Of a stretch of DNA of 64,000 nucleotides, positions 19,645 through 50,299 are shown in pieces. Each line of letters begins with the position of its first letter. Within the stretch, counting starts at the first letter, position 1. The notes beneath the pieces are model-generated. The model saw only the letters and a list, made by a program, of their open reading frames with translations. It had not been told where the DNA came from and searched no databases. Position numbers and translations under genes: made by a program. Source of the stretch: Octopus vulgaris (lineage: Eukaryota); assembly GCA_951406725.2 (NCBI GenBank), contig OX597831.1, forward strand, positions 40,300,001-40,364,000, in the 5' to 3' direction.

Positions 19645-20715
19645 TACACGAAGTGGTATTATCGAAAAGTTCCCGAACTAGTTCTGTAGCGCGCCAACAG
19701 ATGGCAGCACACATTTGCATGTGCAGTGAGAGCTAGCAGTGACCTTCGTGAGGCAGTGGGCCGAGTGACCTCACTGCGTTTACTTCACAAGTTGTGAAAT
19801 TTATGTCTTTGTGATCACGTGTATACTGTAGTGTGGAGGCGCAATGGCCCTGTAGTTAGGGCAGCGGACACGCGGTCGGAAGATCGCGGTTTCGATTCCC
19901 AGACCGGGCGTTGTGTATGTTTATTGAGCGAAAACACCTAAAGCTCCACGACGCTCCGGCAGGGGATGGTGGCGACCCCTGTTGTACTCTTTCGCCATAA
20001 CTTTCTCTCACACTTTCTTCCTGTTTCTTGAGTAACGCTGCGATGGACTGGCGTCCCGTCCAGCTGGGGAGAACACACACGCCACAGAAACTGGGAAACC
20101 GGGCCCATGAGCCCGGCTAGGCTTGAAAAGGGCGCAGTAAATAAATAAATCAATAAATAAATAAATAAAATACTATAGTCCGTAATTTTATCATGGACAG
20201 AAGTTGTAACAGAACCAACGTGGGAAGTCTGCTATAAAGACATTGAGCCTGCTTCGGAAAGAATATGGCGATGAGGCAATTGCGTCGTAAGCAATGTTTC
20301 GAGGGGCATGGGCGTTTTAAAAGCGGAAAAACGTCCCCGGAAGGCGATGAGCGATCTGGAAGACGTGCCACGAGCGCCACCCCCGAAAATGTGGTATTGT
20401 GCATCAAGAATTCGTCCTCCAAGTCCAGACCTTCAATCATGAGGTCTACTGCGACGTTTCGAAATATTTGAGGTAGGACATTCTGCCTAAGAGACCGCAG
20501 CTATGGAGCGGGAACAACTGGAATTTTCACGGCTACAATATACCCTGTTACTGAGTTCCCCCTCACCCGGGAGTTTCTCACCAAATTCAACAAGATATCG
20601 TCTCCGCATCCACCCTAATTGCCAAATTAAGCGCCTGCAGACTTCCATCCAATGTAGTTCAAAGGTCACCGTTTTGACACCGTTGTCTAATTCACGAGCA
20701 CCAACGGATTAGTTA
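19645..20715 (+). mobile_element. Decayed mariner-family element, interrupted by a SINE; 3' end not found
   Basis: TA-CACGAAGTGG..AAAAGTTCCCGAAC terminus; QCFEGHGRFKSGKTSPEGDERSGRRATS resembles the mariner N-terminal domain. Confidence 0.75.
19833..20169 (+). mobile_element. SINE group C, full length, (TAAA)n tail, ~10-bp TSD
   Basis: tRNA-like head; flanks ATACTGTAGT (19823-19832) and ATACTATAGT (20170-20179). Confidence 0.9.
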
Positions 20716-20719
20716 AATA

Positions 20720-20931
20720 CTCTCTCTTTACTTGTTTCAGTCATTTCGGCTGCGACCATGCTGGAGCACCGCCTTTAGTCGAGCAAATCGACACCAGGAC
20801 TTATCCTTTGTAAGCCTAGTGCTTATTCTATCGGTCTCTTTTGCCGAACCGCTAAGTTACGGGGACGTAAACACACCAGCATCAGTTGTCAAGCTATGTT
20901 GGACGGCAACACACACACAATCATATACACA

Positions 20932-20980
<49 letters not shown>

Positions 20981-21078
20981 GACGGGCTTCTTTCAGCTTC
21001 CGTATACCAAATCCACTCACAAAGCTTTGGTCGGCCCGAGGCTGGCTATAGTAGAAGACACTTGCCCAAGGTACCACA
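20720..21078 (-). mobile_element. SINE group A, 5'-truncated, with internal (TA)n
   Basis: Reverse complement of 31945-32301. Confidence 0.88.
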
Positions 21079-21611
21079 ATACAGTATTTAACTAATGTGT
21101 TGGTTCTCGTAAAAAAAAAAAAGCTCCTTGGTGTATCAGGCTACGAATCGCATAGAATACATAATCCGGTACAATAGAAATACATTAGGAGTGTAAAAAT
21201 TATAAAGAGAGGAAGTATACGTTTATACATCAGGTAAAATTTATTTTACCATTGGATATCCATATTTAACTAAAATTGTTTCACAGCTTAATAACATAAA
21301 TAACTAATAATTCATTTTATTTTATCTTATGAGAAATAATAAATTATTTACCGATTTGTATAAGTATATATATATACATATATAATTAATTAATATAGGG
21401 TGGCAAAAAAAAAATTTTGTAGAATTTTTTTGCCACCAGCGGCCTAGTGGGAAAAAATTAAATAGTCATAGACCATTTATAAGTTCAACATCACAATCAA
21501 GGAACGGCCATAATAGGCCATTCACCCACTAGAAATAACAGCCAAAGCTTCAACCGCAAAATAACATTAATTCCGTAAACCAGGAGAAAATTAAAAAACA
21601 TTTACCCTGTA

Positions 21612-21718
21612 ATTTCTTATACGATGCACCGTTTCATCTACTGTTTAATGGTAAACTAACCTGATTAAATTAAATCAAGCCAATCTTCCATAGGCCCTTA
21701 GATTCCTCAGTAAGAAAT
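21612..21718 (-). ncRNA. Type I hammerhead ribozyme
   Basis: Reverse complement of 22875-22981. Confidence 0.88.
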
Positions 21719-22100
21719 AGCCAGAACGGAACAGATATTTTCACGAGGCATTTCTGTCCCTGCCTCGGCAATATCTGACCTAAAATTTTCAAATCATCGC
21801 ACTCGCGCCAAATTTATCGGCAGCAAATAAATATAAGCCGCCGATTCCATTACGGAATCAACCAGAAAATTCATAATTAATTAATATAGGGTGGTAAAAA
21901 AAATTTTGTAGAATTTTTTTGCCACCAGCGGCCTAGTGGGAAAAAATTAAATAGTCATAGACCATTTATAAGTTCAACATCACAATCAAGGAACGGCCGT
22001 AATAGGCCATTCACCCACTAGAAATAACAGCCAAAGCTTCAACCGCAAAATAACATTAATTCCGTAAACCAGGAGAAAATTAAAAAACATTTACCCTGTA

Positions 22101-22207
22101 ATTTCTTATACGATGCACAGTTTCATCTACTGTTTAATGGTAAACTAACTTGATTAAATTAAATCAAGCCAATCTTCCATAGGCCCTTAGATTCCTCAGT
22201 AAGAAAT
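22101..22207 (-). ncRNA. Type I hammerhead ribozyme (one substitution in stem III)
   Basis: As above, with GAAACTGTGCATCGTA in place of GAAACGGTGCATCGTA. Confidence 0.82.
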
Positions 22208-22874
22208 AGCCAGAACGGAACAGATATTTTCACGAGGCATTTCTGTCCCTGCCTCGGCAATATCTGACCTAAAATTTTCAAATCATCGCACTCGCGCCAA
22301 ATTTATCGGCAGCAAATAAATATAAGCCGCCGATTCCATTACGGAATCAACCAGAAAATTCATAATTAATCAATATAGGGTGGCAAAAAAATTTTGTAGA
22401 ATTTTTTTGCCACCAGCGGCCTAGTGGGAAAAAATTAAATAGTCATAGACCATTTATAAGTTCAACATCACAATCAAGGAACGGCCATAATAGGCCATTC
22501 ACCCACTAGAAATAACAGCCAAAGCTTCAACCGCAAAATAACATTAATTCCGTAAACCAGGAGAAAATTAAAAAACATTTACCCTGTAATTTCTTATACG
22601 ATGCACCGTTTCATCTACTGTTTAATGGTAAACTAACCTGATTAAATTAAATCAAGCCAATCTTCCATAGGCAAAAAAATTCTACAAATTTTTTTTTGCC
22701 ACCCTATATTGATTAATTATGAATTTTCTGGTTGATTCCGTAATGGAATCGGCGGCTTATATTTATTTGCTGCCGATAAATTTGGCGCGAGTGCGATGAT
22801 TTGAAAATTTTAGGTCAGATATTGCCGAGGCAGGGACAGAAATGCCTCGTGAAAATATCTGTTCCGTTCTGGCT

Positions 22875-22981
22875 ATTTCTTACTGAGGAATCTAAGGGCC
22901 TATGGAAGATTGGCTTGATTTAATTTAATCAGGTTAGTTTACCATTAAACAGTAGATGAAACGGTGCATCGTATAAGAAAT
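22875..22981 (+). ncRNA. Type I hammerhead ribozyme with extended stem II
   Basis: ATTTCTTA CTGAGGA ATCTA [long hairpin] TAGAT GAAAC GGTGCATC GTA TAAGAAAT: 8-bp stem I, 5-bp stem II base, GUA site at 22971-22973. Confidence 0.9.
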
Positions 22982-23363
22982 TACAGGGTAAATGTTTTTT
23001 AATTTTCTCCTGGTTTACGGAATTAATGTTATTTTGCGGTTGAAGCTTTGGCTGTTATTTCTAGTGGGTGAATGGCCTATTATGGCCGTTCCTTGATTGT
23101 GATGTTGAACTTATAAATGGTCTATGACTATTTAATTTTTTCCCACTAGGCCGCTGGTGGCAAAAAAATTCTACAAAATTTTTTTTGCCACCCTATATTG
23201 ATTAATTATGAATTTTCTGGTTGATTCCGTAATGGAATCGGCGGCTTATATTTATTTGCTGCCGATAAATTTGGCGCGAGTGCGATGATTTGAAAATTTT
23301 AGGTCAGATATTGCCGAGGCAGGGACAGAAATGCCTCGTGAAAATATCTGTTCCGTTCTGGCT

Positions 23364-23470
23364 ATTTCTTACTGAGGAATCTAAGGGCCTATGGAAGATT
23401 GGCTTGATTTAATTTAATCAGGTTAGTTTACCATTAAACAGTAGATGAAACGGTGCATCGTATAAGAAAT
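23364..23470 (+). ncRNA. Type I hammerhead ribozyme
   Basis: Same sequence as 22875-22981, 489 nt downstream; GUA at 23460-23462. Confidence 0.9.
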
Positions 23471-23587
23471 TACAGGGTAAATGTTTTTTAATTTTCTCCT
23501 GGTTTACGGAATTAATGTTATTTTGCGGTTGAAGCTTTGGCTGTTATTTCTAGTGGGTGAATGGCCTATTACGGCCGTTCCTTGATT

Positions 23588-23636
<49 letters not shown>

Positions 23637-23639
<3 letters not shown>

Positions 23640-23930
23640 TAATCCAAACGGGAAAACAGAAAAAACAACAACACAAGGAGGTGGAACAATTAAAGTATTA
23701 TTATTAGGCGCCCAGTATGACGTTTCGAGCGGAGCTCTTCGTCGGAAACATAAGAGAAAGAAAGATCCCGAGGTGGGCGAACGGAGGGAAAAAAAAACGC
23801 GACTGGTTTTTTACGAAGTAAACATGCTGAAAGGCCGGAAGTTTTGGACAACAGGGGCTGGTTTTTAAAGACAGAAGAGCGGAAAAAGGAAGGTTGGTAA
23901 CAACTCGATGAATGGGAAGAATAATGTGTA
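23637..23930 (-). mobile_element. Short minimal-HHR repeat; HHR motif at 23715-23749 with mutated core CCGACGA
   Basis: Minus strand gttt CCGACGA a GAGC tcc GCTC GAAAC GTC atac; homologous to 12861-13067. Confidence 0.65.
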
Positions 23931-24083
23931 TGTGTGAGTGTGTACGTGTGCGTGTGTGTATGTGTGTGTAAGGCGAGATAAAAAAATGTATATGTTAGTG
24001 CGTGCGTCTGTGTGTAATATATATATATATATATGGAAGCCTATAAGTATTTATAAAATCACAAGAATATATATATATATATG

Positions 24084-24155
<72 letters not shown>

Positions 24156-24164
24156 AATTATATA

Positions 24165-24480
24165 TAAAAAATACAAAATGGGACAAGAACGCAAAACACA
24201 CAAAGAGACGACACAAAAAACGGACGGGTCATTCGAAGCCTCTAATATTCAGTCAGGAACCGGATCATCTTCGCAATTTCGGCTGATTAATCCTGCGATC
24301 GCTCCGATCCGGTCAGCCCTAAGGAAAAAATAGGCTACGAGCATTAGATTTCTTGGAAAAAGGATCGAATGTATACGAAACAAGGACAGAAAAACGAACG
24401 ATGCCACACGAATATAAATACCAAAAACAAAAATAAAAATAAAAAACAAGAATAGTAATAACAGAACAAAAACAGCGGGT
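24165..24480. repeat. Unclassified (TA)n-flanked interspersed repeat
   Basis: Complex segment between TA tracts with an A-rich start like the other TA-abutting elements; single copy in this window. Confidence 0.35.
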
Positions 24481-24586
24481 GTCTTATATATACATATATA
24501 TATATGTGTATATACACACAAACATGCACACACACACACATATACGTATATATACAGGCACACACACGTACACTCACATACTCAAG

Positions 24587-24641
<55 letters not shown>

Positions 24642-25069
24642 ACATACATGGTCCCACATAGTTAATAGCGTACTAACACGCACAGTACGGCACCAGTACG
24701 TTTAGTGCTCTTTAATTGATTCTACATGAAACACCAGTACGCTGCGCTATGTTTTCAATTAGTAAATCAGGGAATAGGCTAAAACACGTAGTCCTAAACA
24801 TTTTCTATAATCAGAAATTATTGCTGGCATCTTTTGATGCTTTAATATGCACTTGTGTCAATGCGCCGACAACATTTTTTTCGGTATTTCCGCCAAAAGT
24901 ATTCGTGTAGTCCCTTTTCAGTTCCAGTTGGAGGATTGTGGCCATTCTGGAGCGTCACTCGCACAATTGCTACAGTTTGTAGAGTACTATTTGTGGAGTT
25001 AAATTTTGCTACGTGAGGAATTTAGATACAGCCGTTTGTATTGTATGTGTGTGTGTGTGTGTATGTTTG

Positions 25070-25111
<42 letters not shown>

Positions 25112-25321
25112 TACACAGAGGATTTAGTTACAGGATTTATTAGAATCTCTTGTTCATCATGTTAGCTGGTGAGCAGGCAATCTTCAAGTTTTACCATGCC
25201 TGTTTATCCATATTTAAAACTGACTGAGGATGGTGGATATAATTTATGAATGCGTCAATAAAATGCATCCGAAGCAGTAGATGTTAATCCCCACTTGTGT
25301 TCTTATACATACATACATACA

Positions 25322-25357
<36 letters not shown>

Positions 25358-25411
25358 TGCACATGCACACACACATATATATGTATATGAAGTGGCTATG
25401 AACATTACTTG

Positions 25412-25446
<35 letters not shown>

Positions 25447-25449
25447 TAT

Positions 25450-25525
<76 letters not shown>

Positions 25526-25624
25526 GTATAGATATAGACACATACACACACACACACATATATATATTTGTGTATATGGATGGATGGATGGATGATGGAT
25601 GGATGGATGTGTGGGTGGATGGAC

Positions 25625-25782
25625 GAACTAATGGATTGGCAAAAGAGATCGATAGAATAAGCACCAGGCTTTAAAAAAGTAAATACTGGGATCGAGTAAT
25701 TCGACAAAAAATTCTTCAAAGTGGTGCCCCAGTATGGCCGCAGTCTACCGCCTGAAAGGAGTAAAAGATACAAGATGAAAGA
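25625..25782 (+). mobile_element. SINE group A, 3' fragment
   Basis: GGCAAAAGAGATCGATAGAATAAG...GGTGCCCCAGTATGGCCGCAGTC. Confidence 0.7.
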
Positions 25783-25856
25783 TATTTATTTGCATATTTA
25801 TTTTGCTGGTCGCTGTAGTGTACAGTATATAGCATAAAATATGCTGCTCACCTTTT

Positions 25857-26130
25857 CAATACACCCGGCTCACTGGTGCACGGGAATGTGCAAAACCGGC
25901 GTTTCGACATGTTTTCTCTCGTCAGAAATACTTGTACCTTTGAGACAAAACGAAACCTCTCCTATGACAGATATAAGCACTGATCAGTTAACAATATATT
26001 CGCTGAAAATATAAACAAAGCCAGTGCCTTCGTTGAGGCTCAAGAGTTAGCGAGCTTGTGGCTGGCATGACACAAATTGTCGAATTATTGGTGCCCGAGA
26101 AACCCGTGCGCCAATGAGCCGAGCCTATTG
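25857..26130. mobile_element. MITE with ~28-bp terminal inverted repeats
   Basis: CAATACACCCGGCTCACTGGTGCACGGG versus the reverse complement of CCCGTGCGCCAATGAGCCGAGCCTATTG. Confidence 0.65.
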
Positions 26131-33984: not shown

Positions 33985-34440
33985 GCTTAATTGTTACTGG
34001 TGCAGTGATCGAATGTGACTTTTTAGCCCAGCTAAAGATCTGCAATGTCTTGTACAGAATTGGTAACTAAAACCTTTACCAGTAATAGCTGGCTGTAGTT
34101 GTAACTGGGCTTCATGTACCTTTGCATGTCGTTTAAGTCCTCCTGCCGAATTACACTCTCTTCCACATGCCTGACAGATATGATTAGTATGGTGTGTTAC
34201 ACCACCACTAGTGGCCAGGTTGTCACTCATCTGTTTCGCTTTATGACTACGAAGATGACTCTTGAGTCCAGCTTTACTGAGGCAGGGTCTTGCACAGGCA
34301 CTGCATGTCAGCATCATAGGAAGACCCTTCCCATCTGGAAGTGTAACAGCGAAGCCCTTCCTGACATCCCTCACTTTCTCATGTGCAACTCGAGATTTCT
34401 CAAAAGTGGCTGTCCCCTCGTGCACAATCCCTTTCCACAT
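33985..34440 (-). mobile_element. RTE-like LINE C-terminal fragment with three C2H2-type fingers
   Basis: WKGIVHEGTATFE then CSAC..GLKSHLRSH, CQAC..GLKRHAKVH, (Y)QFC..GLKSHIRSLH. Confidence 0.7.
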
Positions 34441-34634
34441 GCATACATACATACTGCCGCTTATAGCAGAAACAGCCGTAAGCTAATGAACATTATTACA
34501 TAACTTTTATTTCTTCCGGTGTCATCTCTTTGTTCTTTTTACTATTCTATATTCACCTAACATTGTGTACTGGATCACAGGAATATTGTGTTCTACATTA
34601 GGTTATTAGTTTAGCTATTCCTAAGTGAAATATC

Positions 34635-37371: not shown

Positions 37372-37563
37372 CAATCCAAACATGAACAAGCAACAAAGAA
37401 CAGCAACACAAGGACGTGGAGTAAGTACAGTGTTATTGGACGCTCAGGAAAGGTAAGAAAATAAAGATTTCACGTTTCGAGCGGAGCTCTTCGTCAGAAA
37501 TATAGAAAAAGTCCAAAGAAGGGAAGACGGAGAAAGAAAATCGCCAACGATACACACGCGATC
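37369..37563 (-). mobile_element. Short minimal-HHR repeat between (TA)n tracts; HHR motif at 37467-37501
   Basis: Minus strand attt CTGACGA a GAGC tcc GCTC GAAAC GTG aaat; homologous to 12861-13067. Confidence 0.7.
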
Positions 37564-43021: not shown

Positions 43022-45125
43022 TTTAATCAATAGATTATAAGAAAGCTTATAACAGGATTCCACACTCATGTATAAGTGAATGTTTGAGTATGTTCAGTAT
43101 AGCAGATAACATTTAAAAAAATAAATAAATGCGCCCTTTTCAAGCCTAGCCAGGCTCATGGACCCGGTTTCCCGGTTTCTATGGCGTATGTGTTCCCCAG
43201 CTGGACGGGACGCCAGTCCATCGCAGCGTTACTTATTTTTGCCAGCTGATTGGACTGGAGCAACGTGAAATGAAGTGTTTTGCTCAAGAATACAACGCGT
43301 CGCCCGGTCCAGGAATCGAAACTACAATCTTAGGATCATGGTGCTGACACCCTAACCACTAAGCCACGCGCCTCCACATAGCAGATAACATAGGAAAATT
43401 AAATAGCTCTAGCATGAAGAAATGGGAAGTAGATCTCTACTCAGGTGACACACTCTTGGGGAAAGTTAATATCAAAAGAGGAATTTGCCAGAAGGATTCG
43501 CTGTCCCTTTTAATATTTGTTCTGTTCGATCCCCTTCAGTTTAGTATTAAGGAACCCAAAGGCAGGGTATCACTTCAGAAATGGTAAAGGAAAAATTAAC
43601 CATTTGCTCTATATGGATGATCTGAAGCTTTTTAGTAAGAATGAAAAAGAGATAGATTCCTTATTACAGACTGCAAGTCTCTTCAGCAGAGATAAAGGCA
43701 TGGAATTTGTCATAGATAAATGTACAATATTAGTCATGAGAAGAGGACAGGTAGTCGACAGCGAATGCATCCAATTACCACATGACCAGACATTAAAATC
43801 ATTGAAAGGAGGAGAGAGTTATAAGTATCTAGGAGTATCAGAATCTGACAGAATTCTAACTATAGAAATGAAAACGGAAATTGAGGAGTACATCAGAAGG
43901 GTGAGGAAGCTAAAGAAGTCAAAGCTAAATGGTCCCAAACTAGTGAAGTCTGTAAATACCTGGGCAGTATCGTTACTTAGATACTCGGCAGCTTTTGTAG
44001 ATTGGACAAAAACTAAATTAGCAAAGCTAGGCAGAAGAACTAGGAAGGAATTCAATATGTATGGAGGACTCCACCCAAGGACAGGAGCAGCAAGATTAGA
44101 CCTACCTAGAAAGGAAGGTGGAGGAGGATTAATATCAGTGGAAGGCTGCGTGGAGTTAGCTAGAGTAGATATAAACTCCTATGTAGGTAATAGTGAAGAA
44201 AGTTTGTTAAAAGCTGCTAGAGTCACAGCAGGATATAGGGAAACCAAAATACCAAACGAACTTAAAAACCAGAAAAAAACAAAAGAAATTATCTGACTGG
44301 ATGGAGAAGGCGTTGCATGGTAGATTCCCAAAGATAGAGTCAGCAAATGGTAATAGTGAGACATGATTATGGCTGCAGAAGGGAAAGCTGAAGGGGGAGA
44401 CAGAAAGTTTGTTAGTAGCTGCACAAGATCAAGCATTAAGGACTAATTGGATTAAAAGCCAAAATACACAAAAAACCAAGTAGATTCCCAATGTAAATTA
44501 TTCAAATCAAAAGAGGAAAGCGTTACTCATATAGTAAGTGAATGTAACATGCTGACACAGAAAGAATACAAGAAAAGACATGACAATCTAGGGAGAGTAA
44601 TTCACTGGGAGCTTTGTAGAAAGCTAGGATTTCAACATATTGATATATGGTATGAACATGAACCTTATAAAGTACTAGAAAGTAAGAAGTACAAGATATT
44701 GTGAGACTTCAACATTCAGAATAATAGAAGTTAGAAGGCCTGATTTACTGGGTAGTAGATAAAGAAAATAGAAATGCCAGATAATTGACTTTACAGTCCC
44801 AAACGATGAAAAATTTAATATGAGAAGTATAGAAAAAATAGCAAAGTACTAGAACCTAGCCGTTGAATTACAGAGACTATGGAAAGTGCAGTTAAACATA
44901 TCCCAGTAGTTATAGGTGCATTAGGAACTATCGCCAAAGATCTGAACAGATGGATAGAGGAAATGGGCATAAAACCCAGTTTAGTACAGCTCCAGGATAT
45001 TTAGGAGAGGTTTTGGCATCTAAGGTTACTAACAGTAACCCGATAGGTGGGTTCTTAGCATCTAAGGCAACTTGTTGTAGCCCGATGTCAGAATTCTTTT
45101 CTTTTCCAACAGTCTAATCTGTTGA
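43022..45125 (+). mobile_element. 5'-truncated Dong/R4-clade LINE ending next to (AAT)n
   Basis: IDYKKAYNRIPHS, INHLLYMDDLKLF, YKYLG, VNTWAVSLLRYSA, LPRKEGGGGLISVE, CKLFKSKEESVTHIVSEC, RRPDL. Confidence 0.92.
43113..43377 (-). mobile_element. tRNA-derived SINE (group C tail) inserted in the LINE with a perfect 14-bp TSD
   Basis: ATAGCAGATAACAT at 43099-43112 and 43378-43391. Confidence 0.93.
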
Positions 45126-48879: not shown

Positions 48880-49339
48880 ACTTATATATAGATATATGTA
48901 TAGATGTGTATAAATATATATATATACATACATACATACATATATCCAAACATACATGTGCATCTATGCATATATTTATATGCATACATACATGCATACA
49001 TATACACACATACATCACGCTTATATATATATACATATATATATACATATATATACATTATATAATTAGGGCTTAGTAAAATAAATTACTTTGCCACATA
49101 CTGAACTTGCTAGAAATAGCAGCCAAAAAAGTTTTTTTTGCCATTTCTGCCTCGGTTCTCACCGTTAAAATATAATGTTTGCTAGATAACCCACGTGAGT
49201 GGAAGGGGAGAGCAGTGAACCTTCGCTTGCACATTTTGAATTTGTTGGTACTGGCAGTCTGAACGGGTCTTCTGAGGTGATAAGTCGCCAAAGGGTATGT
49301 TCTTTCTTTTTAGTGCTTCCAAATCCAAAATAAGAAATG

Positions 49340-49400
49340 TTGAGCTGACGAAAGAAATGCTGAGTTTATTTGGCTAATCTAGAAACGTTAACGTTCTCAA
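49340..49400 (+). ncRNA. Type I hammerhead ribozyme
   Basis: TTGAG CTGACGA a AGA aat GCTGAG ttta TTTGGC taa TCT a GAAAC GTTAAC GTT CTCAA. Confidence 0.85.
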
Positions 49401-49904
49401 ATAATCTTTGTACTTGTGATATTTTTTCTGTTTTTACCTCCACACCTTCGTGAGTTATTTTGAGTAAACATTATCTGAGAGAAATTTTCTTTAAGTAGTA
49501 GAAATGGCAAAAAAACTTTTTTGGCGGCTATTTCTAGTAAGTTCAGTATGTGGCAAAGTAATTTATTTTACTAAGCCCTAATTATATAATGTAATATTTT
49601 GAATTCGCCTTAAATGGTCCTTTTACATATTGAATACTTGGTGAAATTGATTAATAACTAATTAATTTTACCCTCAATTGTTGATATTATAATTCATTTC
49701 TCTCTGTCATATTGCCTCGGTTCTCACCGTTAAAATATAATATTTGCTAGATAACCCACGTGGGTGGAAGGGGAGAGCAGTGAACCTTCGCTTGCACATT
49801 TTGAATTTGTTGGTACTGGCAGTCTGAACGGGTCTTCTGAGGTGATAAGTCGCCAAAGGGTATGTTCTTTCTTTTTAGTGCTTCCAAATCCAAAATAAGA
49901 AATG

Positions 49905-49965
49905 TTGAGCTGACGAAAGAAATGCTGAGTTTATTTGGCTAATCTAGAAACGTTAACGTTCTCAA
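49905..49965 (+). ncRNA. Type I hammerhead ribozyme
   Basis: Same sequence as 49340-49400, 565 nt downstream. Confidence 0.85.
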
Positions 49966-50247
49966 ATAATCTTTGTACTTGTGATATTTTTCTGTTTTTA
50001 CCTCCACACCTTCGTGAGTTAGTTTGAGTAAACATTATCTGAGAGAAATTTTCTTTAAGTAGTAGAAATGGCAAAAAAACTTTTTTGGCTGCTATTTCTA
50101 GCAAGTTCAGTATGTGGCAAAGTAATTTATTTTACTAAGCCCTAATTATATAATGTAATATTTTGAATTCGCCTTAAATGGTCCTTTTACATACTGAATA
50201 CTTGGTGAAATTGATTAATAACTAATTAATTTTACCCTCAATTGTTG

Positions 50248-50299
<52 letters not shown>

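Follow-up and report, generated by a model that had tools for sequence, protein, structure and literature searches.

How does a short non-coding repeat with a hammerhead ribozyme in every unit spread through an animal genome, and which enzyme copies it? Both the mobilising enzyme of animal retrozymes and the role of the ribozyme in their transposition are open questions. They are raised by positions 21382-23592 of a 64-kb stretch of Octopus vulgaris DNA (assembly GCA_951406725.2, contig OX597831.1, 40,300,001 to 40,364,000 of the forward strand), here called the window, in which an earlier note, made from the letters alone, had seen a 489-bp unit with one hammerhead per monomer and proposed a retrozyme or an element mobilised as circular RNA by a Penelope-like element (PLE). 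The locus was mapped and the 2.8-Gb assembly searched for its relatives, and the resulting family addresses both questions. We consider it highly probable that the element is a young, non-coding 489-bp retrozyme of the non-LTR (non-long terminal repeat) kind, inserted by a two-site, Penelope-type reaction and mobilised in trans by a PLE. The sequence features by which non-LTR retrozymes are recognised are present: a type I hammerhead per unit, a short tandem unit, no coding capacity and dispersed copies. Mobilisation in trans, as the note had it, has held up well, given that the copies are dispersed and non-coding, keep the ribozyme core, carry PLE hallmarks and are not the terminal repeats of a PLE.

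The first inspection had pictured a single array. Instead, two arms stand head to head with their 3' ends outward, at 21382-22672 (minus strand) and 22670-23592 (plus strand), and arm mapping places their joint in a 3-nt overlap of microhomology at 22670-22672. The monomer is numbered from the base after the predicted cut, with 22974 as position 1, and the predicted RNA unit, from cleavage site to cleavage site, spans 489 nt at 22974-23462 (plus strand). In this numbering the left arm holds 1,290 nt of unit sequence, or 2.6 units (monomer 414-489, two whole units and 1-236), and the right arm 923 nt, or 1.9 units (186-489, one whole unit and 1-130). The 3' end of the left arm, 236 nt past the cleavage site on the minus strand, is referred to as the long fixed end, and that of the right arm, 130 nt past it on the plus strand, as the short one. 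Both abut TA as claimed, the right end against a perfect (AT)22 (23591-23635) and the left against a short degenerate run (21365-21381). The near-identity of the copies is borne out by a 489-bp period with units matching at 98-99%, and the unit is indeed non-coding, its longest stop-free frame being 47 aa. Hairpins accompany both ends: the long-end module, seen in the internal plus-strand unit at 23156-23209, contains a strong hairpin at monomer 183-219 and site 236 (23209), and the short-end module at 23559-23592 (plus strand) contains a hairpin at monomer 97-118 and the site at 130. Folding of the whole monomer 22974-23462 gives z = -6.2 against shuffles, and the opposite strand z = -5.3.

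The family is large and young. Within 40 scored of 1,327 candidates there are 251 unit matches, spread over many chromosomes, the top ones 97-100% identical. Exact ends followed by AT occur 670 times for the long and 418 times for the short end, with 0 matches for reversed-pattern controls. Because such exact patterns catch only part of the ends (19 of 35 and 18 of 32 in the top-scoring set), we estimate from these matches about 1,000-1,400 dispersed loci. We mapped 120 of them: the window, 39 other top-scoring loci and 80 loci picked by end pattern (all remaining C1 matches plus 10 from C2), each of the last having one canonical end by selection and the other end free. Locus-private substitutions are few, 333 in 151,354 nt, which indicates a young family, and several subfamilies can be distinguished within it. 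The insertions sit in (TA)n, where a target-site duplication is unreadable. In public data the unit is present in 20 of 23 listed run rows under four organism labels, none recorded as RNA, and contigs of four runs (kind unrecorded) cover most of the unit, without strand, end or level information. Both end types recur in contigs of public runs. An assembly artefact was rejected as the origin of the head-to-head arms on this ground and because the arms are unequal and have different fixed ends.

A descriptor scan for type I hammerheads on both strands of the whole window returned exactly four matches, all of them the arm copies: 22875-22981 and 23364-23470 on the plus strand, with predicted cuts after 22973 and 23462, and 21612-21718 and 22101-22207 on the minus strand, with cuts predicted after 21620 and 22109 in the minus-strand reading. 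Every motif has an 8-bp stem I, CUGAGGA, a 5-bp stem II base, GAAA and a GUA site, and a match with at least 17 paired stem positions arose in 0 of 20,000 Markov-resampled monomers. The coordinates and parts given in the earlier note are therefore confirmed, although its description of four complete motifs is one too many, given that 22101-22207 has a G>T mismatch in stem III, along with a G>A change in the stem II extension. The Rfam scan that it proposed recovers no motif (no hammerhead match at gathering score in the window, and none up to E = 10 in 20000-26000) though the descriptor scan finds all four, a plausible reason being the extra 60 nt or so in stem II. In the lone motif stem III hardly forms, with pair probabilities of 0.10, 0.10, 0.04 and 0.00 as against 0.95-0.99 for stem II, and on this folding model cutting is likely to be done by pairs of motifs. 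Such paired-motif cleavage has been described for animal type I hammerheads (PMC4209133; here and below, statements on published systems refer to the accessible parts of the cited papers). Each arm in the window has two motifs, and 22 of the 80 sampled loci have an arm with at least two cleavage sites. Type I topology and tandem units separate the element from plant LTR retrozymes, which are defined by type III hammerheads in long terminal repeats.

Across genomic copies the ribozyme core is conserved, and the reading offered by the earlier note, which had named a lack of such conservation as telling against it, is not refuted. At the 11 invariant positions of the core, 952 locus-positions show 2 substitutions, compared with 1,342 in 41,301 elsewhere, and recurrent variation in the core is confined to N7 and H17. 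The former takes all four bases, with A, C and T variants in 10, 24 and 25 of 85 loci (a locus may count twice), and the latter is A, C (19 of 91 loci) or once U, and never G. In the stem III loop, GC changes to AU in 10 loci with the palindrome kept. Paired cells make up 99.2% in a set of 12 haplotypes, the commonest among 82 distinct pattern matches, of which a few are unrelated sequence.

The most informative features, both absent from the earlier note, are the use of two fixed ends, one per arm, which links the element to PLEs, and an excess of inner ends at the cleavage site. Across the 120 loci, 92 of which are two-armed, 208 of 227 arms terminate at about 130 or 236 against TA. Among 93 head-to-head pairs, 80 combine a short with a long end, none uses the same site twice and the other 13 contain an odd end. 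Ends of this odd kind look like noisy sequence in a few cases, for example at L125. Arms that belong to the same locus agree at 420 of 485 common variants (87%), where permutation gives 11% and at most 21%, and hence both arms come from one source. In 7 of 45 pairs, moreover, the two arms stop at one and the same template coordinate away from the cleavage site (1.1 expected, p=0.0001). In its sequence pattern, this one-each use of two fixed ends is the Penelope 'tail' signature, with a tail of 106 nt here. The hallmarks of PLEs include a tail that is present at one end and a 5' copy in inverted orientation (PMC8557442), and the one-end tail is also treated in PMC3846280. The anole PLE, a predicted dimer, cuts and extends both strands from two internal start sites on its RNA, and its tail marks these two sites (PMC11167929). 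The octopus insertions show the Penelope-type features of an inverted 5'-truncated copy, a tail at one end only and a microsatellite or AT-rich target.

An inverted arm could also arise if a single cDNA folded back and primed itself, or by collapse of a palindrome, with the tail left by endonuclease resolution. Published proposals invoke self-priming to explain palindromic PLE joints (PMC3846280) and endonuclease resolution as the origin of the tail (PMC8557442). The two arms stop at the same coordinate in 14 of 80 pairs, and equal-ended pairs off the cut differ somewhat more between arms (0.010 vs 0.004 per nt, on small numbers), a trait that might be expected of older, collapsed palindromes. 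In the other pairs, however, it is the short-end arm that reaches further upstream in 41 and the long-end arm in 25, so that as a rule neither arm lies inside the other, which argues against fold-back. Loci with a single arm likewise stop at the cut, and initiation at two sites has been shown biochemically for a PLE (PMC11167929). On balance we think fold-back or palindrome collapse improbable and retain two-site initiation.

What served as template can be read from the inner ends, for which we used the 141 arms of the 80 pattern-picked loci. First-pass positions 1-30 hold 32 inner ends in 2,890 nt, 6.3 times the baseline (P=1e-15). Stops at the cleavage site occur in 32 of 112 first passes as compared with 5 of 53 later ones (p=0.005), and within those haplotypes that stop at all in 23 of 46 and 2 of 14 (p=0.03); since later passes show no significant excess, a block by the hairpin is not the cause of the first-pass stops. 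Of 13 single-arm loci, 5 stop at the cut (0.7 expected). The arms of a pair also stop jointly (both in 11, neither in 27, one only in 3; within stopping haplotypes p=0.0008). The cleavage joint is crossed 316 times, with an indel within 12 nt in 7 cases and at the joint itself in 0. Where positions are covered more than once, 505 of 585 common variants are repeated in each pass of the arm. As sequence patterns, these results suggest two classes of template, one a linear RNA produced by cleavage, the other an RNA that lacks a 5' end and is probably circular, and for the multi-unit arms we lean somewhat towards the circle. We infer that the unit is transcribed, self-cleaves and forms a 489-nt circle.

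Multi-unit arms might instead have been templated by a linear read-through transcript that had been cut partly or not at all, with no circle involved, and the exact joints fit this equally well. Such a template would account for unit-to-unit differences, for the variant patterns of period 2, 3 and 5 inside long arrays (L052, L123, L063 and L038, and also L055) and for some variants that are common to both arms in different passes; the periodicities themselves could stem either from multimeric templates or from later local duplication. In vitro, the anole PLE mainly uses uncleaved RNA, with no RNA ends at the ribozyme site (PMC11167929), and 8 of 9 Xenopus retrozyme dimers remained uncleaved (10.64898/2026.07.22.740005). 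However, independent cutting of a linear RNA predicts equal stopping in later passes, contrary to both pass comparisons above, and the recurrence of most common variants in every pass of an arm also speaks for a circle, as does the occurrence of coral, mussel and axolotl retrozymes as circles (PMC7229834). A purely linear template is a possible, rather unlikely explanation of the multi-unit arms.

Apart from the 489-bp family, the genome contains a sister family (L295-L299, L303-L305, L310 and L312) that is 64-74% identical over monomer 1-240. It has the same two-end head-to-head layout and, by eye, compensatory changes in the long-end hairpin. Some of its copies begin just past the predicted cut, and the hammerhead scan found no canonical motif in these ten loci.

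The search for a helper starts from at least three young PLE families in this genome, PLE-A, PLE-B and PLE-C. The earlier note had asked whether most copies might be terminal repeats of a coding PLE, and they are not: PLE protein matches lie near 15 of the 120 loci, a TA run stands between match and element at 14 of these, and at none of the 120 does an arm lead into its own PLE frame. It is accordingly very improbable, and largely refuted by the sample, that the unit serves a coding PLE as its pseudo-LTR, or is a satellite spread by DNA recombination, with the ribozyme as a passenger. Vertebrate retrozymes do resemble PLE pseudo-LTRs (10.64898/2026.07.22.740005), and a few long arrays of 8-15 units show patterns of local duplication, but the loci are dispersed and short with fixed ends and a conserved core, and DNA homology to PLE-A, -B and -C does not extend beyond 15-mers.

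Our leading candidate for the helper is the intact, Neptune-type PLE-A, to which we give about an even chance of having this role. Many identical copies of its endonuclease are found among 150 scored of 15,869 candidates, and its 4,618-nt unit has frames of 753-782 aa with reverse transcriptase (RT), a CxxC linker and GIY-YIG. The Neptune-type assignment follows from the sequence of this linker as described in PMC8557442, and Nematis has the same linker. By eye, PLE-A has a minimal hammerhead of the U3-A8 type; its two ends lie about 97 and 145 nt beyond the hammerhead, and 15 of 16 two-armed loci combine a long and a short end. Its long end shares 13 of 15 bases with that of the 489-bp element (23188-23202 on the plus strand of the window; sequence comparison, shuffle p=5e-5), a score reached only by monomer ends 229-237, and PLE-A-related subfamilies share 14 of 16 bases with the element's long end. 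A relaxed pattern of the motif occurs at 8 places, of which 2 are the 489-bp family, 5 are ends of the PLE-A lineage and 1 is unrelated. As a separate observation, both PLE-A (L210-L229) and PLE-C (L274-L283, mostly, by eye) obey the rule of one long and one short end, which may be general for the PLEs of this genome.

Several observations weigh against this account of a ribozyme-processed template, two-site insertion and help from PLE-A. Recurrently varying positions number 0 of 11 in the core and 94 of 433 elsewhere, P ~0.07 on position counts alone, and the loci are related, so that the constraint counts are not independent. Covariation within the family is not significant, with 109 of 500 shuffles equalling the covariation score. 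For the template, private variants are more frequent in the arms that stop near the cut (0.0060 vs 0.0014 per nt), and these arms favour certain haplotypes, so that part of the stop signal is confounded by age and subfamily; the stops lie at 3-28, not exactly at position 1. The stalling expected at the other primer is not significant, with 6 stops at 110-140 vs 3.6 expected. The idea of primer-site stalling had come from the top-scoring loci and was rejected on the less biased 80-locus set. Furthermore, 12 variants, including 110C in the window, are common to both arms and absent from some passes, and a single monomer circle alone does not explain them. For the helper, the shared long-end motif is short and partly a hairpin strand, and it is absent from the sister family despite the same layout. 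The match of the short end to PLE-A is weak, 11 of 15 bases, a score equalled by 39 of 489 positions. There is no further homology to PLE-A, blastn against the PLE-A, -B and -C loci finding only nested copies. Finally, the locus L068 (900-2700) has a 7-unit arm joined at its inner end, without TA, to PLE-C sequence that makes up the opposite arm, which may reflect either a template switch or a nested insertion followed by deletion.

The class could be right and the helper another PLE, either PLE-C, PLE-B or one that our searches did not find, a contender that falls somewhat short of an even chance. PLE-B (1,025 aa) and PLE-C (1,312 aa) are both young and intact, the ends of PLE-C abut TA at two fixed positions some 60 nt from each other, and the joint at L068 looks as if made by a template switch; the sister family, with the layout and without the motif, points the same way. 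However, monomer 1-260 compared with the PLE-C end region gives a best 15-mer of only 11 of 15, away from the ends, L068 is 1 of 120 loci and has two long ends, and most places with the relaxed motif pattern, 5 of 8, belong to the PLE-A lineage.

Taken with PLE-A as the candidate helper, the insertion may be pictured as follows. Each hammerhead in a read-through RNA would be a site of cleavage, probably carried out by paired motifs; some pieces would then remain linear and others be ligated into circles. The enzyme, probably a dimer, would cut both strands of a TA tract, and on one and the same RNA one cDNA would begin at 236 and the other at 130. If the template is a linear piece, both copies would run out near position 1, in keeping with the length pattern observed, and if it is a circle, they would pass the joint for one or more turns. 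The two cDNAs would then be joined head to head through short microhomology, as the joints indicate, and a few arrays would later expand by local duplication. The scenario in full has a dimer of the Neptune-type enzyme hold a ribozyme-made circle, insertion by twin-primed rolling-circle copying from sites 106 nt apart, PLE-A recruited through the shared end motif, and short copies as a record of hammerhead cleavage in the germ line; as a conjunction of all these parts it is tentative, and we place it well below an even chance.

Other parts of the window contain further repeats. Directly beside the element, and outside it, lies the 3' end of an older TA-ended repeat family (23636-23960, minus strand) with a minimal hammerhead-like remnant at 23711-23753, and the TA tail of this repeat is the tract into which the element inserted. 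The flanking family has 2,848 candidates, with 83-93% identity among 39 others scored, and the core of the hammerhead-like motif has the sequence CCGACGA in this copy. To all appearance the family is one more non-coding PLE dependant. We rejected it as the parent of the 489-bp element, since it is older and has no RT or GIY-YIG motif of its own in the 1.5 kb beside its 30 loci. At 49148-50251 (plus strand) are two 565-bp units, 98.7% identical over 540 bp, with hammerhead-like motifs at 49337-49397 and 49902-49962; the pair may be a further retrozyme or a tandem of pseudo-LTRs. Positions 1-2198 hold about 2.6 copies of an 838-bp tandem repeat that is 99.9% identical, young and of unknown kind; its 207-aa frame has no Pfam match. 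Minimal hammerhead-like motifs of the kind found at PLE ends occur at 12927-12969 (plus), 37458-37505 (minus) and 25886-25933 (minus). Three RVT_1 (Pfam) fragments and one C2H2 zinc-finger frame, at 43514-44293 (plus), 14450-15037, 10224-10562 and 33997-34482 (all minus), are probably the remains of LINEs.

Among known systems, the closest are the metazoan non-LTR retrozymes, whose units measure 220-245 nt in coral, 350-390 nt in mussel and 330/350 nt in axolotl (PMC7229834). Like them, the octopus element is built of non-coding units in tandem with a single type I hammerhead in each, has low GC and a palindromic stem III, occurs in many dispersed copies and shares its genome with PLEs. Its 489-nt unit is above the 170-400 nt given in PMC7229834 and within the 51-972 bp of a recent preprint (10.64898/2026.07.22.740005), and the stem II extension of about 60 nt sets it apart. 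Circles and cleavage have been demonstrated for metazoan retrozymes, whereas for the present element they are predicted. In their accessible text, the retrozyme papers contain no head-to-head arms, two fixed ends, cleavage-site stops or named helper. Mobilisation by PLEs has been proposed from co-occurrence and pseudo-LTR similarity, and in the accessible part of a 2020 review the repeats carry no motif that points to a helper (PMC7761336). In the literature that we covered, which includes few subscription papers, no cephalopod retrozyme and no such retrozyme footprint was found; the supplements of PMC7229834 and the 2026 preprint may list the family.

The endonuclease-bearing PLEs (Neptune, Penelope/Poseidon and Naiad; PMC8557442, PMC3846280, PMC11167929, PMC4209133) show the same partial tandem with an inverted 5'-truncated copy, the same tail at one end, an AT-rich or (TA)n target and a hammerhead upstream of two start sites. 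In contrast to them, the octopus element has no RT or GIY-YIG frame and its hammerhead is full-sized, not minimal; its tail of 106 nt exceeds the 30-40 nt of the papers and the 50-60 nt or so of PLE-A and PLE-C. One reconstituted PLE needed no hammerhead in vitro (PMC11167929), and the full steps of PLE insertion are described as unresolved (PMC8557442). Non-autonomous Chlamys elements such as MRC1 have the same non-coding dependence on a PLE and the same multicopy head-to-tail insertions, although they share clear 3' sequence with their autonomous partner, where here there is a 15-mer only, and their clade is described, in the accessible text, without the canonical hammerheads present here (PMC8557442). 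Judged by its sequence, the octopus element is not an autonomous PLE, yet it inserts like one.

Twin priming by L1 also yields inverted insertions, with two target ends priming on one RNA; there the position of the second site varies and there is hardly any overlap between the arms. In the octopus family both sites are fixed, the arms overlap and an arm may exceed one unit. Set beside these systems, the element itself belongs to a known class, and its family offers many young insertions with strict one-each start sites, a statistical footprint of cleavage, a candidate helper whose frames are intact and a short, defined RNA.

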